NCBI RefSeq assembly: GCF_021054785.1
Contig: NZ_CP088239.1
Location: 990,001-1,022,000, forward strand
From: Tannockella kyphosi
Lineage (GTDB): Bacteria > Bacillota_I > Bacilli_A > Erysipelotrichales > Coprobacillaceae
DNA length: 32,000 nucleotides
Direction: 5' to 3'
In this document: one piece after another, positions 4,312 to 22,139 of the stretch
How the letters are laid out: each line of letters begins with the position of its first letter
How positions within the stretch are numbered: the stretch's first letter is position 1
Notes under the pieces: generated by a model
The model's input: the letters and a program-made list of their open reading frames with translations, nothing else
What the model was told of the DNA's origin: nothing
Database searches by the model: none
Translations under genes and position numbers: made by a program

Positions 4312-5235
4312 ATGTATAGTGAAGAAAAGAAAAAAATTGCAGTAGAAACATATATTAAAAACGGTACAAGAGCAGCTCCAACAATCCGTGAATTAGGTTA
4401 TCCTAGTAGAAGAATAATCAGAATATGGTATAAAATATACACCGAAAATAATTCAATTTTTCCTGATAAACAAAGAAAACCAAGATACACAAAAGAACAA
4501 AGAAAAGAAGCAGTTGAACACTATTTAAATACTGGGAGATGCATTTCTTATACCACAAGGGTCTTAGGATATCCATCAAGAACCATCTTATCAAGATGGT
4601 TAAGAGAAGATGTTCCCGACTTTAAAAAAGCTTGCTTAACAGGAAAATCCAAAGTATCCTATACAAAACAAAAGAAGAAAGAAATACTTCAAGATGTAGT
4701 AATAGGTGAAAAAACGATAATATCCCTAGCAAAAGATCACAATGTAACTCCTATGGGTATATATAATTGGAAAAATGAAGTGTTATCAAAGGAAAGCTTA
4801 GAGATGATACAAGATAATAAGAAAAAGAAATCAAATATAGATATAATAACATTACAAGATGAACTATCCACTTTACAAAAAGAAGTTGCAAAACTACAAT
4901 TAGAAAAAGATATTTTAGAAACTGCTGTAAAAGTATTAAAAAAAGTAGAGGGCATTGATTACACGATCATTTCTAATATGGGAAAAACAATCATTATCAA
5001 TACCCTAAAAGATACTTATAAAATAAAAGAATTACTAGTACGACTACATATATCAAGCAGTAGCTATTTTCACTGTGTTAATCGACTAAAAAAGAAGATA
5101 AGTATAAAGAAATTCGTACTATCATGCATGATATGTTTTCACAATCCTATCAAGCATACAGTTATCGTAGAATTCATGGTGAATTATCAAACAAGAAAAT
5201 TAGTATATCTGAAAAGGTTGTACGTAAAATTATGA
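4312..5235 (+). CDS. IS3-family transposase OrfA (two HTH repeats plus leucine-zipper-like segment)
   Basis: Duplicated HTH-like segments (RELGYPSRRIIRIWY / RVLGYPSRTILSRWL). A heptad Leu region LQDELSTLQKEVAKLQLEKDILE follows. The last ~47 codons after the slippery site are out-of-frame orfB sequence. Confidence 0.7.
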   Translation: MYSEEKKKIAVETYIKNGTRAAPTIRELGYPSRRIIRIWYKIYTENNSIFPDKQRKPRYTKEQRKEAVEHYLNTGRCISYTTRVLGYPSRTILSRWLREDVPDFKKACLTGKSKVSYTKQKKKEILQDVVIGEKTIISLAKDHNVTPMGIYNWKNEVLSKESLEMIQDNKKKKSNIDIITLQDELSTLQKEVAKLQLEKDILETAVKVLKKVEGIDYTIISNMGKTIIINTLKDTYKIKELLVRLHISSSSYFHCVNRLKKKISIKKFVLSCMICFHNPIKHTVIVEFMVNYQTRKLVYLKRLYVKL

Positions 5236-5839
5236 AAGAGGAAGTCTAACTGTTTATAATAAGAAGAAAAAGAAATACTCTTCTTACTTAGGTGAAATAT
5301 CTCCAGCCGTAGAAAACTTGGTAAAAAGAAACTTTCATTGTAATGAACCAAATAAATTACTATTGACAGATATTACTGAATTTTCAATCCCAGCAGGAAA
5401 AGTATATTTGTCACCACTTGTAGATTGTTATGATGGTCTTATAACCTCGTGGTCTATTAGTCCATCACCAAATGCTCAGTTAGTAAATAGTATGCTAGAA
5501 ACAGCTTTAGATTCATTTAGTAACGATAATAGCGTTGTTATACATTCAGACCGCAGATCACATTACCGTTGGCCTCAATGGATTGAAATGATGGATAAGA
5601 ACAACTTAATTAGATCCATGTCTAAAAAAGGATGTTCACCCGATAATTCAGCTTGTGAAGGCTTTTTTGGACGATTAAAAAATGAAATGTTTTATAACAA
5701 GGATTGGACTAATATCAGTATTGATAAATTTATAGAAGAAGTTGATATCTATATAAAATGGTATAATAAAAAAAGAATAAAAAAGTCATTAGGTTGGTTA
5801 AGTCCAATAGACTACAGACGTGAAAAAGGTGTATTATAA
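5082..5839 (+). pseudogene. IS3-family transposase OrfB (DDE integrase core), disrupted by a frameshift near 5240-5249
   Basis: The OrfB frame hits TAA at 5247. Restoring one G (gaa gGt cta) would give ...MKEEGLTVYNKKKKKYSSYLGEISPAVENLVKRNF..., continuous with the 5318-5839 ORF. DDE residues sit in LLTDITEF, VIHSDRRSHY and SPDNSACEGFF. Confidence 0.7.
5088..5094 (+). promoter_or_regulatory. Candidate programmed -1 ribosomal frameshift heptamer A_AAA_AAG
   Basis: In the orfA frame the codons are ctA AAA AAG. Slipping -1 reads ...KK-EDKYKEIRTIMHDMFSQSYQAYSYRRIHGELSNKKISISEKVVRKIMKEE, a typical IS3 OrfB N-terminus. The -1 frame is open from 5082. Confidence 0.55.
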
Positions 5840-12865: not shown

Positions 12866-13909
12866 CTATTCAACACCGTACAACTCTTTTTGTATTTCTA
12901 TGTCTTCATAATATCTTTCTAATTTTATTTCCCATAAACTAGACAGAACTTCTTCGTCGCTTCTATCTTCTAACTCAAATTGAGTAGATAATATTTCGCC
13001 AAAGTAACTTGTTAATTTAGTCGCTCCATATAAATTTAAATGGGAACCGCCATCATATGTGTCGGTGTTATAGTCCAATCCAATTTCATTTGTATAATCC
13101 AAAAAATTAATATATGTTATATCATTATTCAATGCATAGTTTGTTATTTGTTCATCCCATTCATCATACCAATAAGGGTATAAAGAAGGTGCTTTTATTA
13201 GTATTAATTCAATATCATTTTCATCACAAAGATTAGTAATCTTATCTAAATACTCTAGAACATTCTCACTAATATCATATGTTTCTAAAACGGATCCATT
13301 AGGAACACTAGTGTAAGGTTGTGTATCTACTCTTAAATAGTATCCATTATACGAAACTAAATCACTAGAAAACATATATTCAAAATCCTCAAAAGTTAAC
13401 TCACTCCATCTTGAATGATACCTCAGGATTGGGAAAACATAATCTAATAACGACTCACTTTCTAACATAGAAGTAGTAATTGAATTAATCTTAGAAATAG
13501 ACCAATTCATACCATCCAACGTCATTCGATTATACTCTTCTTTTTGTGGCTCATCATATCGTATGGTTGAAACGTTAAATACGACAACATCAGGAACTTC
13601 ATAATTTAATGTATCTTCTAAAATATAATATGATTGCCATATCAATTGTTGTGCACTTCCTCTAACATAAGAATTTATACCATATTCCTCATACAAAACA
13701 GCAGGTATGAAATTACTATATACTTCACAATCTCCTATAAAAATAACATCATGATCTTTTTCATCATAGCCTTCCTGATTATAATAATATTCTTCTATAA
13801 AGGCCCCTTCGATAAGACTTGTCATATATTTAGGAATTAGTAATAATTGTAAAAGATATAAAATCAATAACAGTATAATAATAAAGAACACTAATCTTAT
13901 TTTTCTCAT
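12866..13909 (-). CDS. Membrane-anchored SGNH/GDSL-like (DltD/AlgX-like) protein; the block-I motif reads GDC instead of GDS
   Basis: N-terminal TM helix (LVFFIIILLLILYLLQLLLI). Block-I-like VIFIGDCEVYSNF and block-V-like DGGSHLNLYGA. Fold assignment is from motifs only. Confidence 0.6.
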   Translation of the reverse strand: MRKIRLVFFIIILLLILYLLQLLLIPKYMTSLIEGAFIEEYYYNQEGYDEKDHDVIFIGDCEVYSNFIPAVLYEEYGINSYVRGSAQQLIWQSYYILEDTLNYEVPDVVVFNVSTIRYDEPQKEEYNRMTLDGMNWSISKINSITTSMLESESLLDYVFPILRYHSRWSELTFEDFEYMFSSDLVSYNGYYLRVDTQPYTSVPNGSVLETYDISENVLEYLDKITNLCDENDIELILIKAPSLYPYWYDEWDEQITNYALNNDITYINFLDYTNEIGLDYNTDTYDGGSHLNLYGATKLTSYFGEILSTQFELEDRSDEEVLSSLWEIKLERYYEDIEIQKELYGVE

Positions 13910-15367: not shown

Positions 15368-16786
15368 TTAAATTAATATACTGAAACTAGGTATGTATGT
15401 CATTAAAGCCCAAACAACAACCGTCATGAGTAAGACAACTATCACCGTTAGTTTAATCCCATGTTTAAACATATACTGTGGGTTCAACCCATATCCTACT
15501 GGTATTGCACGAATCGATGTAGGCATACAATAAGATAGATTAACCCCTACACTTGCTGCCAACATATATGGAATCGGATTTAAGTTTAGTGCTAACGCTA
15601 AACTTAAAACAATTGGTATTGCTACTGCAGCAGTTGCAGTGTTACTTGTTAAATCCGATAAAACAATCGTTAATGCAATAATTACAAACACTAACATCAT
15701 TTCATTTTGAAACTGTACAGTAGAAAGTAAATTACCTAAAGCTTGTGCTGCTCCACTACCATTAATTAATGTCCCTACTGCTAAACCTCCTGCAAATACA
15801 TAAATTAATTCCCATACTATTTTCTTTTGAACATTCTTCCAAACCATTAGTTTCTCTCCATTTTCTTTTTTGAAAAGAAAACTAATTAATGCACATATAA
15901 TAAAAATATAAGCAGGTTCTAAACCTGGTAATAAATGTTCATAGAATGATCTTGTAAATGACAAGATTGTTGCAATAACAAATAATAATAAGCACATTGC
16001 TTCATTTTTACTCATCTTCCCAAGTTCTTTGTTCTTTTCAACAAAATATGCTTTTGATCCTTCTAATTGAATGTTCTTAGGTTTAATAACCAATAAGAAA
16101 GCCAAATTAGATACAATTAAAACAATCATCACAGGGAAAAATTTAATTACCCAATCAATATACATAAACTCACTTCCTGTATATTGCTCAATATAATCAA
16201 CCACTACTAAATTCATTGCTCCTCCTAATGGACTAGCCAATCCCCCTAATCCAGCACCCCAAGCAATAGTTAGTAATAAAATAGATCCCACTTCACTTTT
16301 ATTAATATTTTCTATACCAATATAGCGAAGCATTGATACAGCAATAGGTACAACTGTTGCACACACGATTGCATTTGGTAATACAGCAGACATAGCCACC
16401 GATAATACAAACCAAAATATAATTTGTGAAGTCAAAGAAGAGCCTATTAACCCTAAGAAGACATAAGCAATTCTTTTGTCTAATTCTACCTCTTCCCATG
16501 AAACTGTTAATATAGATGCTCCTAAAAGTAATAAGATTGTTTCTGAAGCATAGTTTGCTATTACACTAGACATAGATGTCATTTCAATAATCGCATTAAT
16601 TGCTATTGGTAAAAAGCCTGTTACTGCATAGTCCATGCATGAACTAACCCACCAATACGCCATCCAAGCAACCGTACCAATAGCTGCTCTCATTTCAAAC
16701 GTAGTAAAAATACTTTCTGGTAAGAATGCAATGCATGATAGAAATAGGATTGGCCCTATTAGGATATGTATAGTATTCTTTTTCAT
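15368..16786 (-). CDS. DASS/SLC13-type (ArsB/NhaD superfamily) anion/carboxylate permease
   Basis: About 471 aa and polytopic. The two-repeat architecture and motifs (ASPLGGAMNLVV, SDLTSNTATAAVAIPI) fit SLC13-family permeases. The ATG at 16786 (MKKNTIH...) lies 2 nt after the carrier-protein stop; the listed 16804 start has no RBS. Confidence 0.75.
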   Translation of the reverse strand: MKKNTIHILIGPILFLSCIAFLPESIFTTFEMRAAIGTVAWMAYWWVSSCMDYAVTGFLPIAINAIIEMTSMSSVIANYASETILLLLGASILTVSWEEVELDKRIAYVFLGLIGSSLTSQIIFWFVLSVAMSAVLPNAIVCATVVPIAVSMLRYIGIENINKSEVGSILLLTIAWGAGLGGLASPLGGAMNLVVVDYIEQYTGSEFMYIDWVIKFFPVMIVLIVSNLAFLLVIKPKNIQLEGSKAYFVEKNKELGKMSKNEAMCLLLFVIATILSFTRSFYEHLLPGLEPAYIFIICALISFLFKKENGEKLMVWKNVQKKIVWELIYVFAGGLAVGTLINGSGAAQALGNLLSTVQFQNEMMLVFVIIALTIVLSDLTSNTATAAVAIPIVLSLALALNLNPIPYMLAASVGVNLSYCMPTSIRAIPVGYGLNPQYMFKHGIKLTVIVVLLMTVVVWALMTYIPSFSILI

Positions 16787-16787
16787 A

Positions 16788-17015
16788 TTACCCTTGTAAT
16801 TCACTAATTAATTCAACGATTGCATCAACAGAATTTAAATTTTCTGGCACTAAATCCATTACATCTATTTCTACATCAAATGCAAAACTTAGTTCACTTA
16901 CTAAACTAATAATAGATAATGAATCTAAAATACGTGAATCAATTAATTTTGTCTCTTTTTCATAATCTACTCCTGGATTTACTGTGTTTAAAATCTCAAT
17001 AATTTGTTCTTTCAT
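16788..17015 (-). CDS. Acyl/D-alanyl carrier protein (DltC-like)
   Basis: 75 aa with the phosphopantetheine attachment motif ILDSLSIISLVSEL (compare DltC LLDSFGTVELL). GAGGGAAAG RBS. Confidence 0.8.
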   Translation of the reverse strand: MKEQIIEILNTVNPGVDYEKETKLIDSRILDSLSIISLVSELSFAFDVEIDVMDLVPENLNSVDAIVELISELQG

Positions 17016-17026
17016 TTTCTTTCCCT

Positions 17027-17218
17027 CTACCCTATTTTGGTCTTTCTATCAATTTTTCCATTATATGTTCTAGGAACACTATCTATTTTTATAATGCTTC
17101 TAGGTCTTTTGAAGTCTTCTAAATTATTTAGGAAATGTTCTTCTAAAATCTTTGTATCAAAGTCAACTTCTGACACTATATACAAAACAGGAACAGCTCC
17201 TATTAATGCATCTTCCCT
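17027..17218 (-). pseudogene. C-terminal 63 codons of the DltA-like AMP-ligase, severed by the IS110 insertion
   Basis: The minus-strand frame reads REDALIGAVPVLYIVSEVDFDTKILEEHFLNNLEDFKRPRSIIKIDSVPRTYNGKIDRKTKIG*. This is the adenylate-forming enzyme A8-A10 region, including NGKIDRK. Confidence 0.85.
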
Positions 17219-17273
17219 TGTATGATATTAATGATCCTTGTTTCACTAATTACATACGCTCCTTTCTTATATT

Positions 17274-17282
17274 TGTTATAAT
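17274..17282 (+). promoter_or_regulatory. Extended -10 element TGtTATAAT inside the IS110 left arm
   Basis: Reads atatttGTTATAATgg. It would start transcription near 17289, upstream of the structured non-coding region and the transposase. Confidence 0.4.
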
Positions 17283-17288
17283 GGATAT

Positions 17289-17445
17289 AGAACCTATGTT
17301 TTGATTTTTACTATGGTTTTCGTCCATTTAAGGGAGACTAATACCATGGCTCTATATTTTTAATTTATAGTTGGATAAGCGTTAATGCTTTTATGTCACG
17401 CAAGGATATAGATATAGACTGCCATGGATAGACAAGGTTCTAGAA
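17289..17445 (+). ncRNA. Candidate IS110 bridge (seek) RNA
   Basis: A 14-bp interrupted stem pairs CCATGGC-TCTATAT (17344-17357) with ATATAGA-ct-GCCATGG (17412-17427). The enclosed loop carries ATAGTTGG (17367-17374), identical to the IS right terminus (18719-18726). AAGGGAGAC (17330-17338) is the reverse complement of the right junction (18725-18733). RNA ends are approximate. Confidence 0.4.
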
Positions 17446-17460
17446 AGGTGGTCTATTTTT

Positions 17461-18624
17461 ATGACTTATTACGTAGGCATTGATATTGCCAAAACAACGC
17501 ATTATGCTTGTGTTATCACAACTCATGGTGAAGTGATTCACCAACCTTTTCCTTTTGATAATTCAAAAGAAGGGTTTCATTTATTACTTTCCAAAATATC
17601 TTCTATTGATAAAGAAGATATTCTAATTGGTTTTGAATCTACTGCTCATTACCATCAAAACTTACATTCTTATCTTTCTACTTTTGGATACCACTGCGAA
17701 CTTATTAATCCCATCATATCCAAACAGTTTCGTGGTTTATCAGTTCGTAATGCTAAGACGGATAAAATTGATGCTATGTCCATTGCTCAACTTCTTTCTT
17801 ATCAGTACAACAATTCACAAGGTCAAGACTTTCTTGTTTCTGACTTACGTGTATATTGTGATGAAAGAGTTCGTCTTACTAAACAAAAGACAAAACTATA
17901 CATCCAACTAACTGCTGAGCTAGATCGTGTGTTCCCAGAGCTTAAATCCTTCTTTAAAGGCAATTTAAAGACGAATGCAGCCCATAATTTACTAAAACGA
18001 TACGCTACAGCTAAGGAAATAAAAGAAGTTCGAAATGAGGCTTTGACAAAGTTAATTTCTAAAAATAGTAAAGGCTTCAACCTCGAACGTATCAAAGACC
18101 TTAAATCGTTAAGTAAAAATAGCGTTGGCTTTCATTCAAACGCAATCTCTTTTAGAATTAAAAATATCATACTCCAAATCGAACTTCTAGAATCGCAGTT
18201 AGAAGATGTAGAAGCAAACATCATTGAAATGATGAAAGAAATAGACAGTGCTATATTGAATATCCCAGGTATGGGCTATATTCAAGGTGCTTACATCTTA
18301 TCTGCTATCATTAGTATAGACCGATTTGATAGTCCTTGTAAAGTACTAGCTTATGCAGGATTAGATCCAATCATAAGACAGTCTGGTAATTTTAATGCAA
18401 AGAGAACACGTATGTCTAAAAGAGGAAATGCTACACTACGTTATGCGCTTATATGGGCAGCTCATAATGTGGCAAAAAATTCAACAACTATGAATACTTA
18501 CTATTTAAAGAAACGCAGTGAAGGAAAATCTCATTACAATGCCTTAGGGCATTGTTCAAAGAAACTAGTAAACTATATTTACTTTGTCTTAAATAATCCT
18601 GATGAAAAATTCATCTTAGAATAA
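17461..18624 (+). CDS. IS110-family transposase (DEDD RuvC-like domain plus C-terminal Tnp domain)
   Basis: YVGIDIAKTTH (D), GFESTAHYH (E) and AKTDKIDA (D). C-terminal IPGMG..., GLDP...QSG...MSKRGNATLRYAL is typical of IS110/IS1111 recombinases. AAAGGTGG RBS. Confidence 0.92.
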   Translation: MTYYVGIDIAKTTHYACVITTHGEVIHQPFPFDNSKEGFHLLLSKISSIDKEDILIGFESTAHYHQNLHSYLSTFGYHCELINPIISKQFRGLSVRNAKTDKIDAMSIAQLLSYQYNNSQGQDFLVSDLRVYCDERVRLTKQKTKLYIQLTAELDRVFPELKSFFKGNLKTNAAHNLLKRYATAKEIKEVRNEALTKLISKNSKGFNLERIKDLKSLSKNSVGFHSNAISFRIKNIILQIELLESQLEDVEANIIEMMKEIDSAILNIPGMGYIQGAYILSAIISIDRFDSPCKVLAYAGLDPIIRQSGNFNAKRTRMSKRGNATLRYALIWAAHNVAKNSTTMNTYYLKKRSEGKSHYNALGHCSKKLVNYIYFVLNNPDEKFILE

Positions 18625-18729
18625 TTTTTTAAAAATAGCTTATTTTACCTTTTTTAGTGCGCTCTTTTTTAAGACTTAAAAGAAATTTAATTTTTTATCA
18701 TTTTTCTCTTGAAAAATCATAGTTGGTCT

Positions 18730-19986
18730 CCCTTTACAAATACAATCATTAACACCTTCTATTTGTAATGCTAATTCCTCTACTTCCAAAGGAGAAACTT
18801 TATTTCCTCCAGTAATAATAACATCATCTGCTCTACCTAACATATAAATTCTTCCTTCTTCATCTTTATATCCTAAATCAGAAGATTGTAAATATCCATT
18901 AATAATGGTTTTATTCGTTAATTCTGGTTCATTATAATAACACTTCATTTTCATTCCACCTGTATATGAAATATATCCTGGGTTTTCTAATGAGGCATCT
19001 TCCATTTCACCGCCATTTTCATCAACAATTCTAAATTGTGAATGAACTCCTGGGTAGCCTATACAGCTTTGTTTATTATCTTTCGAATTAAAGTTCAATA
19101 TACAAGCACATCCTACTTCTGTAGAACCATATATATTATATAAACGGACATTTGGTACTATTTGTAATAAATGTTCTTTATCTACTTCTGGTATAGGTGC
19201 TGATCCAAATTGAATATAATCTAATTGATCTGCATAATTCGCAATTCGATCCCTTGTCAATTTAAAAATAATACTCATTGCAGCTGGAGCCATTGCTAAT
19301 GCTGTTACTTTATATTTTTCAATCATATTAAATACTATTTTTACAAAAAATACACCATCTAATACTATAACAGTACTCCCATTAATCATATTCGCAAAAT
19401 ATCTTCTTAAACTAAAGGAATGATTCATTGGCATCGGTATGATTTCTACATTATCCTTTTTCATCTCAACACCATACATTACATTTTCTCCTACCGCTAC
19501 TTCTGCAAGATATTCTAAAACAATACCTTTCGACTTTCCAGTAGTTCCAGTAGTAAACAAAATCATTGAATCACCAACCATATTAGAAATATCAAAAGTA
19601 TTAACTACTCCTGTATAATTATATGCATCTTCGATGCAGTAACAATCATACCCATCTATTTTCATATCACCAAAGAACTTTGTTGCTTTTGTTTCCTTTA
19701 AAATCTCTTGAACTCTACCAACATTCACACTTTTTTCTAATGGAACAACTATTCCATTTATTAATTGAATAGCGTGTACTAATACTAAATAAGGAACAGA
19801 TTGACTATTCTTTACAACAATGCACTCATTGTCTTTTACACCTATTTCTAACAAATAACTAGCAGCAATATTTATCTTATCCCAATATTCTTGATAAGTT
19901 AGTTCTATCTTAACATCAATGATTGCTAGTTTATTGGGTGTACTTATTGCATGATTTCTAATACATTCTACTATTGATTTATTCAT
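18730..19986 (-). pseudogene. N-terminal 419 codons of the DltA-like AMP-dependent ligase (the listed ORF runs on into IS sequence to 18676)
   Basis: Adenylation motifs FTTGTTGKSKG (A3), NIYGSTE (A5) and GYLQSSDLGY...GRADDVII (A7/A8). GAGGAGG RBS. The last 17 residues of the listed ORF (RPTMIFQEKNDKKLNFF) are read from the IS110 right end. Confidence 0.85.
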
Positions 19987-20030
19987 CTGATTCCTCCTCT
20001 AATTCCCCAATATATCAATAGGAGCATTTT

Positions 20031-21641
20031 TTAAAATGCTCCATAAATAAACGCGCTTGCGTCATAACCAGCACCATACATCCCAAATATAATTACAATC
20101 ATTATTGCAACATAATAAATAATCCATCGAACAATTATATTTTGTTTTCCAATAGACTTTCTAATTTCAACCCCTTTTTCGTGTAAGATATCTACACCAA
20201 TCATACACACAACTCCTACGATTATAACAATAAAGTGTTTTTCAGTTAGGAGCGTACCATACAAATCGTGATTATAAACAATACTATTATTAAATATTTG
20301 CTTAAGTAATATAAAGAACCCTGTTGTAGTGCCAGTAATAGTAATCATTCTTCCTATACCAAATAAAAATATTGTTCTAAACATACAAAAAATATGATAA
20401 CAAAAGTTATTGCTTATAGAAATATTTTTAAATAATTTATCTGCTATTGGTTTAGTTTCTTTCGAAACAGTCATGATAGCACACCAATATAATCCCCATA
20501 AAATATAATCTATACCTGTTCCGTGCCAAATACCAGTAAATAACCATACTGTAATCAACGGGACAAATGCATTAATGAAAGATGCCCTCCATAGCTTTCC
20601 TGACTTTTTTAATTTCATCGTATATTTCATAAACTTTGAATTTACTGCTATAGGAAAGTAAATATAGTCTTTTGTCCAAGTTCCTAAAGTCATATGCCAT
20701 CTTGCCCAAAATTCAGAAGCACTCTTAGCAAAAAACGGTTGTTCAAAGTTTTTATCTAACTGTATACCGATTATTTCTGATATCCCTCGAACTATATCCA
20801 TACATCCACTAAAATCAGCATACAACTGAATAACACAAGAAATAATAGCTATTACTATTTCTATTGATGAATACTCTAATGGATTGGCAAATACAACAGT
20901 AGTATATGTTGCAATATAATTAGCAACAATTAATTTCTTACCATATCCCCATAGCATTAACTGTAACCCATGACAAGTACGATCAAAACTAAGACTAGGA
21001 AGGTTTTTCATTTGTTCTATTAATTTAGAATACTTACTTATCGGCCCTTGTACTATATGTGGGAAATAAATCATAGCAGCAAATAGATTGATAAAATCTT
21101 TTTCTGCTTCCGTTTTTTTCCAATATACATCCAACAAATATCCTATTGAAGATAAAGTGTAATAAGATATTCCTAAGGGAACTAGAATACCGAACCCAAA
21201 AGTCATGTTTGATATTTTTTCTAATATTTCAAAACTAAGTAATTTTGTAATTTTTACATAACCCCATATTGAAACAATCGTAAATATGGCAAGTTTCAAA
21301 TAAATAGTTGCTTTGTTTTTATATTGACTAAATAAGACTCTTTGTTCTTTAGGTGTTAGTCCTTGTTTTTCTTGATCAAACTCTTTATACACTTTTTCTA
21401 TTTTTCTAGATGAAAGATATACTGTTAATGCTGTTCCTACAACAATAATAGATGCTCCAACCCCATTCCAAAAATAGAATATCATACTTGCAATTAATAC
21501 TAGATATTTTCTAAGATTTGCATTTGGTAAAACAGCATACACTATAATAAAAAACATCAAACAAATCCCAAATAATCCTGATGTATAACTCAATTCTGCA
21601 TTCCACATCAATTGAGCAAAATTCAATATCCTATTTATCAT
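20031..21641 (-). CDS. MBOAT-family membrane O-acyltransferase (DltB/AlgI-like), 536 aa
   Basis: Polytopic, with MBOAT His motifs FWARWHMTLGTWTKDYIYFP and FTGIWHGTG. GGGGGAGG RBS. Confidence 0.85.
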   Translation of the reverse strand: MINRILNFAQLMWNAELSYTSGLFGICLMFFIIVYAVLPNANLRKYLVLIASMIFYFWNGVGASIIVVGTALTVYLSSRKIEKVYKEFDQEKQGLTPKEQRVLFSQYKNKATIYLKLAIFTIVSIWGYVKITKLLSFEILEKISNMTFGFGILVPLGISYYTLSSIGYLLDVYWKKTEAEKDFINLFAAMIYFPHIVQGPISKYSKLIEQMKNLPSLSFDRTCHGLQLMLWGYGKKLIVANYIATYTTVVFANPLEYSSIEIVIAIISCVIQLYADFSGCMDIVRGISEIIGIQLDKNFEQPFFAKSASEFWARWHMTLGTWTKDYIYFPIAVNSKFMKYTMKLKKSGKLWRASFINAFVPLITVWLFTGIWHGTGIDYILWGLYWCAIMTVSKETKPIADKLFKNISISNNFCYHIFCMFRTIFLFGIGRMITITGTTTGFFILLKQIFNNSIVYNHDLYGTLLTEKHFIVIIVGVVCMIGVDILHEKGVEIRKSIGKQNIIVRWIIYYVAIMIVIIFGMYGAGYDASAFIYGAF

Positions 21642-22083
21642 TATTCCTCCCCCTTAATATCCACTAGAACACATATTTCAACATGTACTAAATAAAAACT
21701 ATAATATATTATTTCTCCTTAACCATAGAGTATCTGCAAAGATGAAATGATTTCTATTGTCGTAATTATATCAATAACAAATTATAAAATAATATCATAA
21801 CCTCAACAACACATTTACTTCACTGGGATAAAAAACAAGACTTTAACAATTAATATTTATTAGATTTAAACAATCTCCATATTACTCTTATCTTGTGCCA
21901 TTTTTCATCCCACTATAGCATATATTATTTTAAAATTTAAATTATTTACATAAAACATTACTCTAGCTTGAAACAGTGAATATAATAACTTACGATAAAA
22001 ATTTATTTATAAAAAAGAGACTTTTATAATACTTGAGTTTTTATCATTCAGTCATCTTATATTTTTATCATTAAAATATTTAA

Positions 22084-22136
22084 AATAATGGATTCTAGTA
22101 AAGATATATATATCTTTTATTTAAGAATCCATTATT
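22084..22136 (-). terminator. Two-tier hairpin after polC (13-bp outer stem AATAATGGATTCT/AGAATCCATTATT enclosing an AAAGATATA/TATATCTTT hairpin)
   Basis: Read directly. It starts 3 nt after the polC stop. The downstream tract is only moderately T-rich, so terminator function is tentative. Confidence 0.45.
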
Positions 22137-22139
22137 ATT

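Follow-up and report, generated by a model that had tools for sequence, protein, structure and literature searches.

The mechanism of IS110-family insertion sequences (ISs) has been known since 2024, when IS621 of Escherichia coli and its bridge RNA were described (Durrant et al. 2024, PMC11208160; Hiraizumi et al. 2024, PMC11208158). The guide layout of IS621, the inclusion of the core in both pairings, and a promoter formed at the junction have been published (PMC11208160), and natural reprogramming among relatives has already been reported (PMC11187229, PMC11208160). Here, we describe an IS621-like element that lies within an adenylate-forming ligase gene of Tannockella kyphosi (Erysipelotrichales), in a 32,000-nucleotide stretch referred to here as the window (assembly GCF_021054785.1, contig NZ_CP088239.1, positions 990,001 to 1,022,000, forward strand). 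The element adds a member to a known kind. Its ligase-borne copy differs from the three other copies in the genome at a single base of one predicted guide, and the target of that copy differs at the base opposite. We consider it very likely that bridge-RNA-guided, IS621-like insertion at a CT core, with a variant guide matching the ligase site, explains the locus.

A second group of elements bears on the choice of target. IS900, IS901, IS902, and IS116 reportedly use the target consensus CATGN(4-6)*CNCCTT, where they enter, always in the same orientation, the interval from ribosome-binding site to start codon. This consensus has the geometry of the CAT-N5-7-CT*CCTTT sites used by the family of the window element; the IS900 group is Actinobacterial and high-GC (Mycobacterium, Streptomyces), and the two are likened by geometry only. 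IS900 belongs to the IS110 family and carries a host-expression-dependent antisense open reading frame (ORF), hed (PMC8141618).

The junctions of the element can be read to the nucleotide. The left one (17208-17226) runs ...GCATCTTCC-CT directly into TGTATGAT, and the right one (18718-18738) runs ...CATAGTTGGT-CT into CCCTTTACA. The two ends, TGTATGAT... and ...TAGTTGGTCT, form no terminal inverted repeats, and there is no multi-base target duplication, only the 2-nt core. The left arm (242 bp) is longer than the right arm (105 bp), which fits the IS110 group, whereas the IS1111 group shows the reverse. Four copies are present in the genome, a single 2.26-Mb contig, all matched over 1511 bp at 98.5-100% identity, and the three sister copies are 98.5-99.3% identical to the ligase copy. 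When the flanks are aligned, all four copies start with TGTATGAT directly after a flanking CT and end in ...TAGTTGGTCT; because the preceding base is T in three copies and C at the ligase copy, the shared core is CT rather than TCT. Elsewhere in the order, about 20 related elements share this left end after CT, and the right ends of 12 related elements, all that were locatable, read ATAG(T/C)TGGTCT. The initial annotation of this DNA had claimed exact boundaries of the IS110/IS621 type with a CT core; the junctions are as it gave them, CT flanks every copy, and the ends it named recur in the three sisters and agree with those of the relatives.

The recombinase reading frame is open in 4/4 copies. 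Its product matches an N-terminal RuvC-like domain (DEDD_Tnp_IS110, PF01548, 2.6e-36) and a C-terminal Tnp domain (Transposase_20, PF02371, 9.2e-21), and it scores 209.7 bits against NCBIfam NF033542, "IS110 family RNA-guided transposase" (cut-off 140). The element thus resembles IS621 in its DEDD plus Tnp-domain recombinase, a long left arm encoding a putative guide RNA, its CT core, and a left end that begins TGTAT. It differs in belonging to another bacterial order, and the left arms of the two are too different to compare by eye.

We assigned guides in the left arm after the published IS621 scheme (PMC11208160): left and right target guides (LTG and RTG) and left and right donor guides (LDG and RDG; Table 1). 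The sole guide difference among the four copies is in the RTG, at IS position 114 (window 17332), which is G at the ligase copy and A in the three sisters. This position opposes the third base after the core, which is C at the ligase target and T in the three sister targets. The ligase-copy RTG, AAGGGAG, is the reverse complement of its own target, CT-CCCTT, at 7/7 positions, and the sister RTG, AAAGGAG, is the reverse complement of their targets, CT-CCTTT. Ten differences are private to the ligase copy relative to its sisters (IS positions 34, 99, 114, 465, 479, 848, 1277, 1454, 1457, and 1459), and the chance that one of 10 such substitutions hits that base and makes it complementary is about 10 x 1/1511 x 1/3 = 0.002.

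Related elements offer an independent check. We compared left arms with those of relatives that are 66-75% identical in DNA, from about 20 genomes of the same order. For 14 insertions, both the guide and the right flank are known; in 12 of these, the guide correctly predicts the target base at the third position past the core. That base is C in all three elements with a G guide (the ligase copy and the elements at loci L025 and L027) and in 0/11 others (Fisher estimate, ~0.003). The L027 target is CCCTT; that of L025 is TCCTT, where the first base after the core is T, not C. Other guide letters match as well, as in L035 (guide CCAAA, target CCAAT), L029 (CCTTG, CCTTG), and L036 (CCATT, CCACA).

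A coincidental guide polymorphism would require that an element with the A guide inserted at an off-target with one mismatch and that the A-to-G change came later or was unrelated. Precedent exists for such tolerance: IS621 accepts single mismatches, its off-targets typically have one or two (PMC11208160), and half-match insertions have been reported (10.64898/2026.08.31.748434). The present system is evidently tolerant too, since its left guide is poorly matched in all copies. We nevertheless judge this course of events unlikely, in that the single guide difference lies exactly opposite, and is complementary to, the single target difference, with the small chance calculated above, and all G-guide elements have C at the matching target position. 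For the guide-directed insertion that we prefer, the G variant would have preceded and directed the event. On balance, we lean toward a single A-to-G change in the RTG having moved the element from true ribosome-binding sites (CTCCTTT) to a CTCCCTT within coding sequence. Since rG can also wobble with dT, the G variant might have broadened the target range instead of switching it.

Several features of the left arm argue that it encodes an IS621-type bridge RNA, which we presume to be made. The related left arms align well, with conserved blocks alternating with variable ones. The LTG corresponds to a variable 9-nt segment 5' of a hairpin, and the RTG corresponds to five variable bases plus a conserved GGAG after that hairpin. 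Register shifts of 1-2 nt in the LTG were better for single cases (L003, L002) but not for the set, and the LTG was left in the register that abuts the hairpin on its 5' side. The candidate donor guides would pair with the element's own ends. The LDG matches 8/8 next to the core region and covaries with the end that it would recognize: the form AUAGCUGG is confined to the relatives with a right end of ATAGCTGG and is present in all of them, so that relatives with ATAGCTGG in the donor guide carry ATAGCTGG at the right end. The RDG match is partial. Its ..CGCAAGG (17398-17405) is complementary to the left-end junction CT+TG, and a ..CGCAAG motif is conserved in relatives; further inward, the pairing is discontinuous, as in published IS621 (PMC11208160), in which the RDG also contains ..GCAAGG.

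We folded the left arm with the guides held unpaired and projected the fold onto 19 related left arms. Paired positions can pair in 74.5% of cells, compared with 39-50% when the partners are slid, a control that is favorable to the fold since both the alignment and the fold derive partly from the window sequence. Twenty pairs change on both sides, and two distal stems or hairpins pair in 99-100% of cells. In the predicted structure, the target loop lies in a multibranch loop whose outer stem also encloses the donor hairpin. A base stem directly flanking the LTG and RTG was sought and not found; a better fit is given by the outer stem around the two loops. One of the private substitutions of the ligase copy, at window 17252 (IS position 34), weakens a hairpin at the 5' end of the left arm (GTATGA/TCATAC).

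Joining the right end, CT, and the left end would create a predicted sigma-70 promoter, as in IS621: TTGAAA, a 17-nt spacer (15 nt from the right end and 2 nt from the left), and TATGAT. Relatives carry TTGACA in the -35 place. The private substitutions of the right arm at IS positions 1454, 1457, and 1459 (window 18672-18677) form a cluster that precedes the -35 hexamer by about 35 nt. A 300-bp recombinase-less element was seen at L032:1362-1661 (minus strand), where the left arm of a relative (bridge-RNA region, guide AAAGAAG) is joined directly to its right end (TTGACA...ATAGTTGGTCT). The sequence preceding this element is CATAATTTCT, and on its right side the flank begins with CGTATGA, which is similar to a further left end; the element may represent a miniature derivative that consists of the RNA region only.

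Table 1. Features of the insertion and of the surrounding gene cluster (window positions)
Feature	Position	Strand	Details
IS110-family insertion sequence (IS110 group, IS621-like)	17219-18729	+	1511 bp including one copy of the CT core
CT core	17217-17218 (left, target-side copy); 18728-18729 (right copy)	+	
Candidate bridge RNA core	17288-17442	+	Constrained fold and covariation
Left target guide (LTG), candidate	17304-17312	+	AUUUUUACU; directly 5' of a 4-bp hairpin (17313-17316/17324-17327)
Right target guide (RTG)	17328-17336	+	UUAAGGGAG; complementary to target
Left donor guide (LDG)	17367-17374	+	AUAGUUGG; identical to right end ATAGTTGG (18720-18727)
Right donor guide (RDG), candidate	17395-17405	+	GUCACGCAAGG; CAAG complementary to CT+TG
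Recombinase/transposase	17461-18624	+	387 aa, intact; Pfam and NCBIfam
Predicted junction promoter	18709-18714 (-35, TTGAAA); 17221-17226 (-10, TATGAT)	+	Predicted from sequence only
Ligase gene, 5' part	18730-19986	-	419 codons; Pfam AMP-binding, 3.9e-47
Ligase gene, 3' part	17027-17218	-	63 codons and stop; AMP-binding_C, 2e-4, 22.7 bits (cut-off 24.5)
MBOAT membrane acyltransferase (DltB-like), first cluster gene	20031-21641	-	Pfam MBOAT; DltB 130.5 bits (cut-off 375)
Small carrier protein (DltC-like)	16788-17015	-	75 aa; Pfam PP-binding; DltC 36.6 bits (cut-off 68)
DASS-family anion:sodium symporter	15368-16804	-	Overlaps carrier gene by 17 nt
Protein in DltD position	12866-13909	-	347 aa; no Pfam match; BLASTP 27%, E=2e-14, to L049:4917-5999

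The sister copies indicate what the usual target is. Read on the opposite strand, all three interrupt AAAGG^AG (the caret marks the insertion point); the start codons (GTG or ATG) that follow 7-10 nt later open ORFs of 116, 335, and 365 codons. Nearly all relatives have CAT 5-7 nt to the left of CT. From this spacing and the sister sites together, we conclude that the element targets a Shine-Dalgarno sequence together with a start codon and enters it antisense. IS621 differs in this respect, as it targets a repetitive extragenic palindromic (REP) element. The usual target guide is in essence a Shine-Dalgarno sequence (AAAGGAG), which accounts for the normal antisense landing within ribosome-binding sites, 7-10 nt ahead of a start codon. 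The ligase site, AAAGGGAGGgaagATG, is an internal look-alike of a ribosome-binding site: on the coding strand it reads AAAGGG^AGGGAAGATG, that is, AAAGGGAGG-gaag-ATG, which has the same geometry with the ATG out of frame, and its CCC fits the variant guide. The copy with the G-for-A guide (AAGGGAG) would thus have settled at a look-alike with the matching CCC.

Reading the right end of the element antisense (18676-18729, minus strand) reveals an ATG 7 nt after the split host Shine-Dalgarno sequence, AAAGGGAG-ACCAACT-ATG, which opens a 14-codon ORF. All relatives seen have kept, in their right ends ("tcATAG"), the CAT that supplies this antisense ATG. In its geometry, the arrangement resembles that of hed, which is, in contrast, a long antisense ORF.

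The gene that received the insertion can be reassembled without gaps. The minus strand of the 5' part translates to 419 aa ending in ...NDCICKG, that of the 3' part to REDALIGAVPVLYIV...NGKIDRKTKIG and a stop (63 aa), and both lie in one frame, together 482 codons. As it stands, the 5' ORF runs 17 codons into the IS (436 aa, 18676-19986). In a search of 5.8 billion proteins, the nearest intact homologue is also 482 aa long and is 81% identical to the 5' part and 79.9% identical to the joined halves; many further homologues are 60-70% identical and 480-490 aa long. The 3' part aligns with the C termini of intact homologues, which read (D)CICKG-K/R-xDALxGAVP across the break, gap-free. The in-frame, 482-aa reconstruction of the initial annotation is therefore borne out by the shared frame and by the length of the nearest homologue, and its proposed comparison with empty sites gives the expected result at the protein level, where intact homologues are collinear with no gap at the break.

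The joined halves retain 165/166 columns that are invariant in 10 homologues and have acquired no added stop or frameshift; the ligase thus shows no decay beyond the insertion. We regard it as very improbable that the ligase was already dead, or existed as two separate genes, before the IS arrived and that the insertion was without functional consequence. Searches of two other species of the genus did not recover the gene cluster around the ligase, which marks the cluster as accessory and perhaps dispensable. On the other side, the halves join in frame, give a protein as long as the nearest homologue, and leave no gap where the gene is broken; nearly every invariant residue is retained, no internal stop is present, and the neighboring cluster genes are intact. 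The insertion had also been called recent: the undecayed ligase agrees with this, but the IS copy, with its 10 private differences, is not itself brand new.

In its present form, the ligase is missing the final 63 residues, among them the C-terminal subdomain with the conserved NGKIDRK lysine motif, and it is very probably inactive. Its identity is less close to DltA than had been proposed. While the gene neighborhood is Dlt-like, the protein has no DltA match among its 25 best NCBIfam families or the 60 PDB sequences listed, and we rejected DltA orthology. The best NCBIfam matches are to long-chain-fatty-acid, o-succinylbenzoate, and similar ligases, all far below cut-offs, and the best PDB matches are to LgrA (a nonribosomal peptide synthetase adenylation domain), FadD5, MenE, and 4-coumarate ligases (4CL).

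We searched for an allele of the gene free of the IS. None of this species was found in 40 relatives, in the protein collection, or in metagenome contigs. The 40 relatives hold no close ligase (best, 27% identical), the exact 24-nt empty-site pattern has no match in the metagenome contigs, and a protein-guided scan of the same contigs yielded nothing closer than a 45% relative. Nine contigs carry the exact MBOAT sequence of this genome, and its PolC is the sole member of its 90% cluster among 15 billion proteins. The AAAGGGAGG motif at the break is absent from the DNA of all homologues compared; since the target motif is specific to this lineage, the homologous loci are unusable as empty sites.

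Taken together, the evidence favors the following course of events. The element would have entered the ligase gene by conservative recombination at the CT core, parting codons 419 and 420 and leaving the host bases unchanged apart from the shared CT. A guide RNA from the left arm would have selected the site, with the RTG predicted to pair with CT and the next five target bases. This predicted RTG pairing spans 7 bp, compared with 4 bp in wild-type IS621.

Five points weigh against this interpretation. First, the LTG fits the left flanks poorly, at 4, 4, 2, and 4 of 7 positions in the four copies. Across relatives, it matches its own flank at 3.9/7 and the flanks of others at 3.07/7 (permutation p=0.002). 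Targeting seems to proceed mostly via the 7-bp RTG, unlike in IS621, for which all target positions matter. Second, once the four IS copies are removed, the genome contains 142 CTCCCTT sites (versus 632 CTCCTTT sites), and the guide therefore narrows but does not fix the choice of site. Third, the order of events, guide change and then insertion, is not demonstrable from one genome, and insertion with an A guide and one mismatch, followed by a chance A-to-G change, keeps a small probability. Fourth, the empty site at the nucleotide level is a reconstruction. Fifth, Rfam 15 gave no match at E<=1 in 16500-20500, although whether that release holds a bridge-RNA family was left unchecked.

Whether the disruption could be undone depends on how such elements leave. 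Excision of IS621 recombines both junctions and regenerates the original target, and it is far less efficient than insertion (PMC13626964). A 2026 preprint describes mainly single-strand, copy-and-paste excision, in which the donor site stays occupied (10.64898/2026.08.31.748434). By analogy with IS621, excision could in principle restore the target and with it the ligase gene; the initial annotation had called the inactivation possibly reversible, and the IS621 work agrees with this.

The ligase belongs to a cluster that recalls the Dlt system (DltA-D) in combining an adenylating ligase, a small carrier, an MBOAT protein, and a fourth protein whose role we infer from its position. It differs from that system in that no cluster protein reaches the NCBIfam cut-off of its Dlt counterpart and in the conserved DASS anion transporter of clusters of this type. 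The MBOAT, ligase, and carrier genes, and in most cases the DASS gene as well, are grouped in differing orders at more than 25 loci from metagenome-assembled genomes of Oscillospiraceae, Lachnospiraceae, and other Clostridia (L049-L083). In related loci, a Pfam-less protein of about 350-360 aa is encoded between the MBOAT and ligase genes, and its homologue in the window is the product of 12866-13909. The linked DASS transporter suggests that a carboxylate other than D-alanine would be attached to a surface polymer.

The carrier gene starts 11 nt downstream of the ligase stop. The PolC gene lies directly upstream of the cluster, so the cluster promoter must lie in 21642-22139, and the IS, which is antisense, stands between this promoter region and the carrier and transporter genes. 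Given the antisense IS and the overlapping or abutting genes, a polar effect is plausible, and the carrier and transporter would then be underexpressed. Consensus scans around the cluster returned fewer promoter-like matches than shuffled sequences did and no useful terminator.

Other mobile elements were also observed. A second IS110-family recombinase, 32% identical to the one described here, is present in two copies in the genome (G000:C1:472459-473601 and 1401403-1402545), and an IS3-type ORF pair (HTH_Tnp_1 followed by an rve integrase core) lies at window positions 4312-5839 on the plus strand, surrounded by host genes of exclusively minus-strand orientation.

The locus introduces no new principle; it offers a neat natural illustration, within one genome, of a single-base match between guide and target. 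It provides a natural guide pair differing by one base, along with the natural targets, from a lineage of Gram-positive anaerobes and thus from outside the E. coli model. A group of elements with a Shine-Dalgarno-mimic guide would explain the "ribosome-binding site plus start codon" target of IS900-type elements in bridge-RNA terms. The finding also marks a conserved, uncharacterized Dlt-like cluster with a DASS transporter as probably switched off in this strain. If the proposed A-to-G change did redirect the element, the locus would exemplify natural, minimal guide drift that leads to a new target and to a new type of damage, in which a gene is disrupted rather than translationally silenced.

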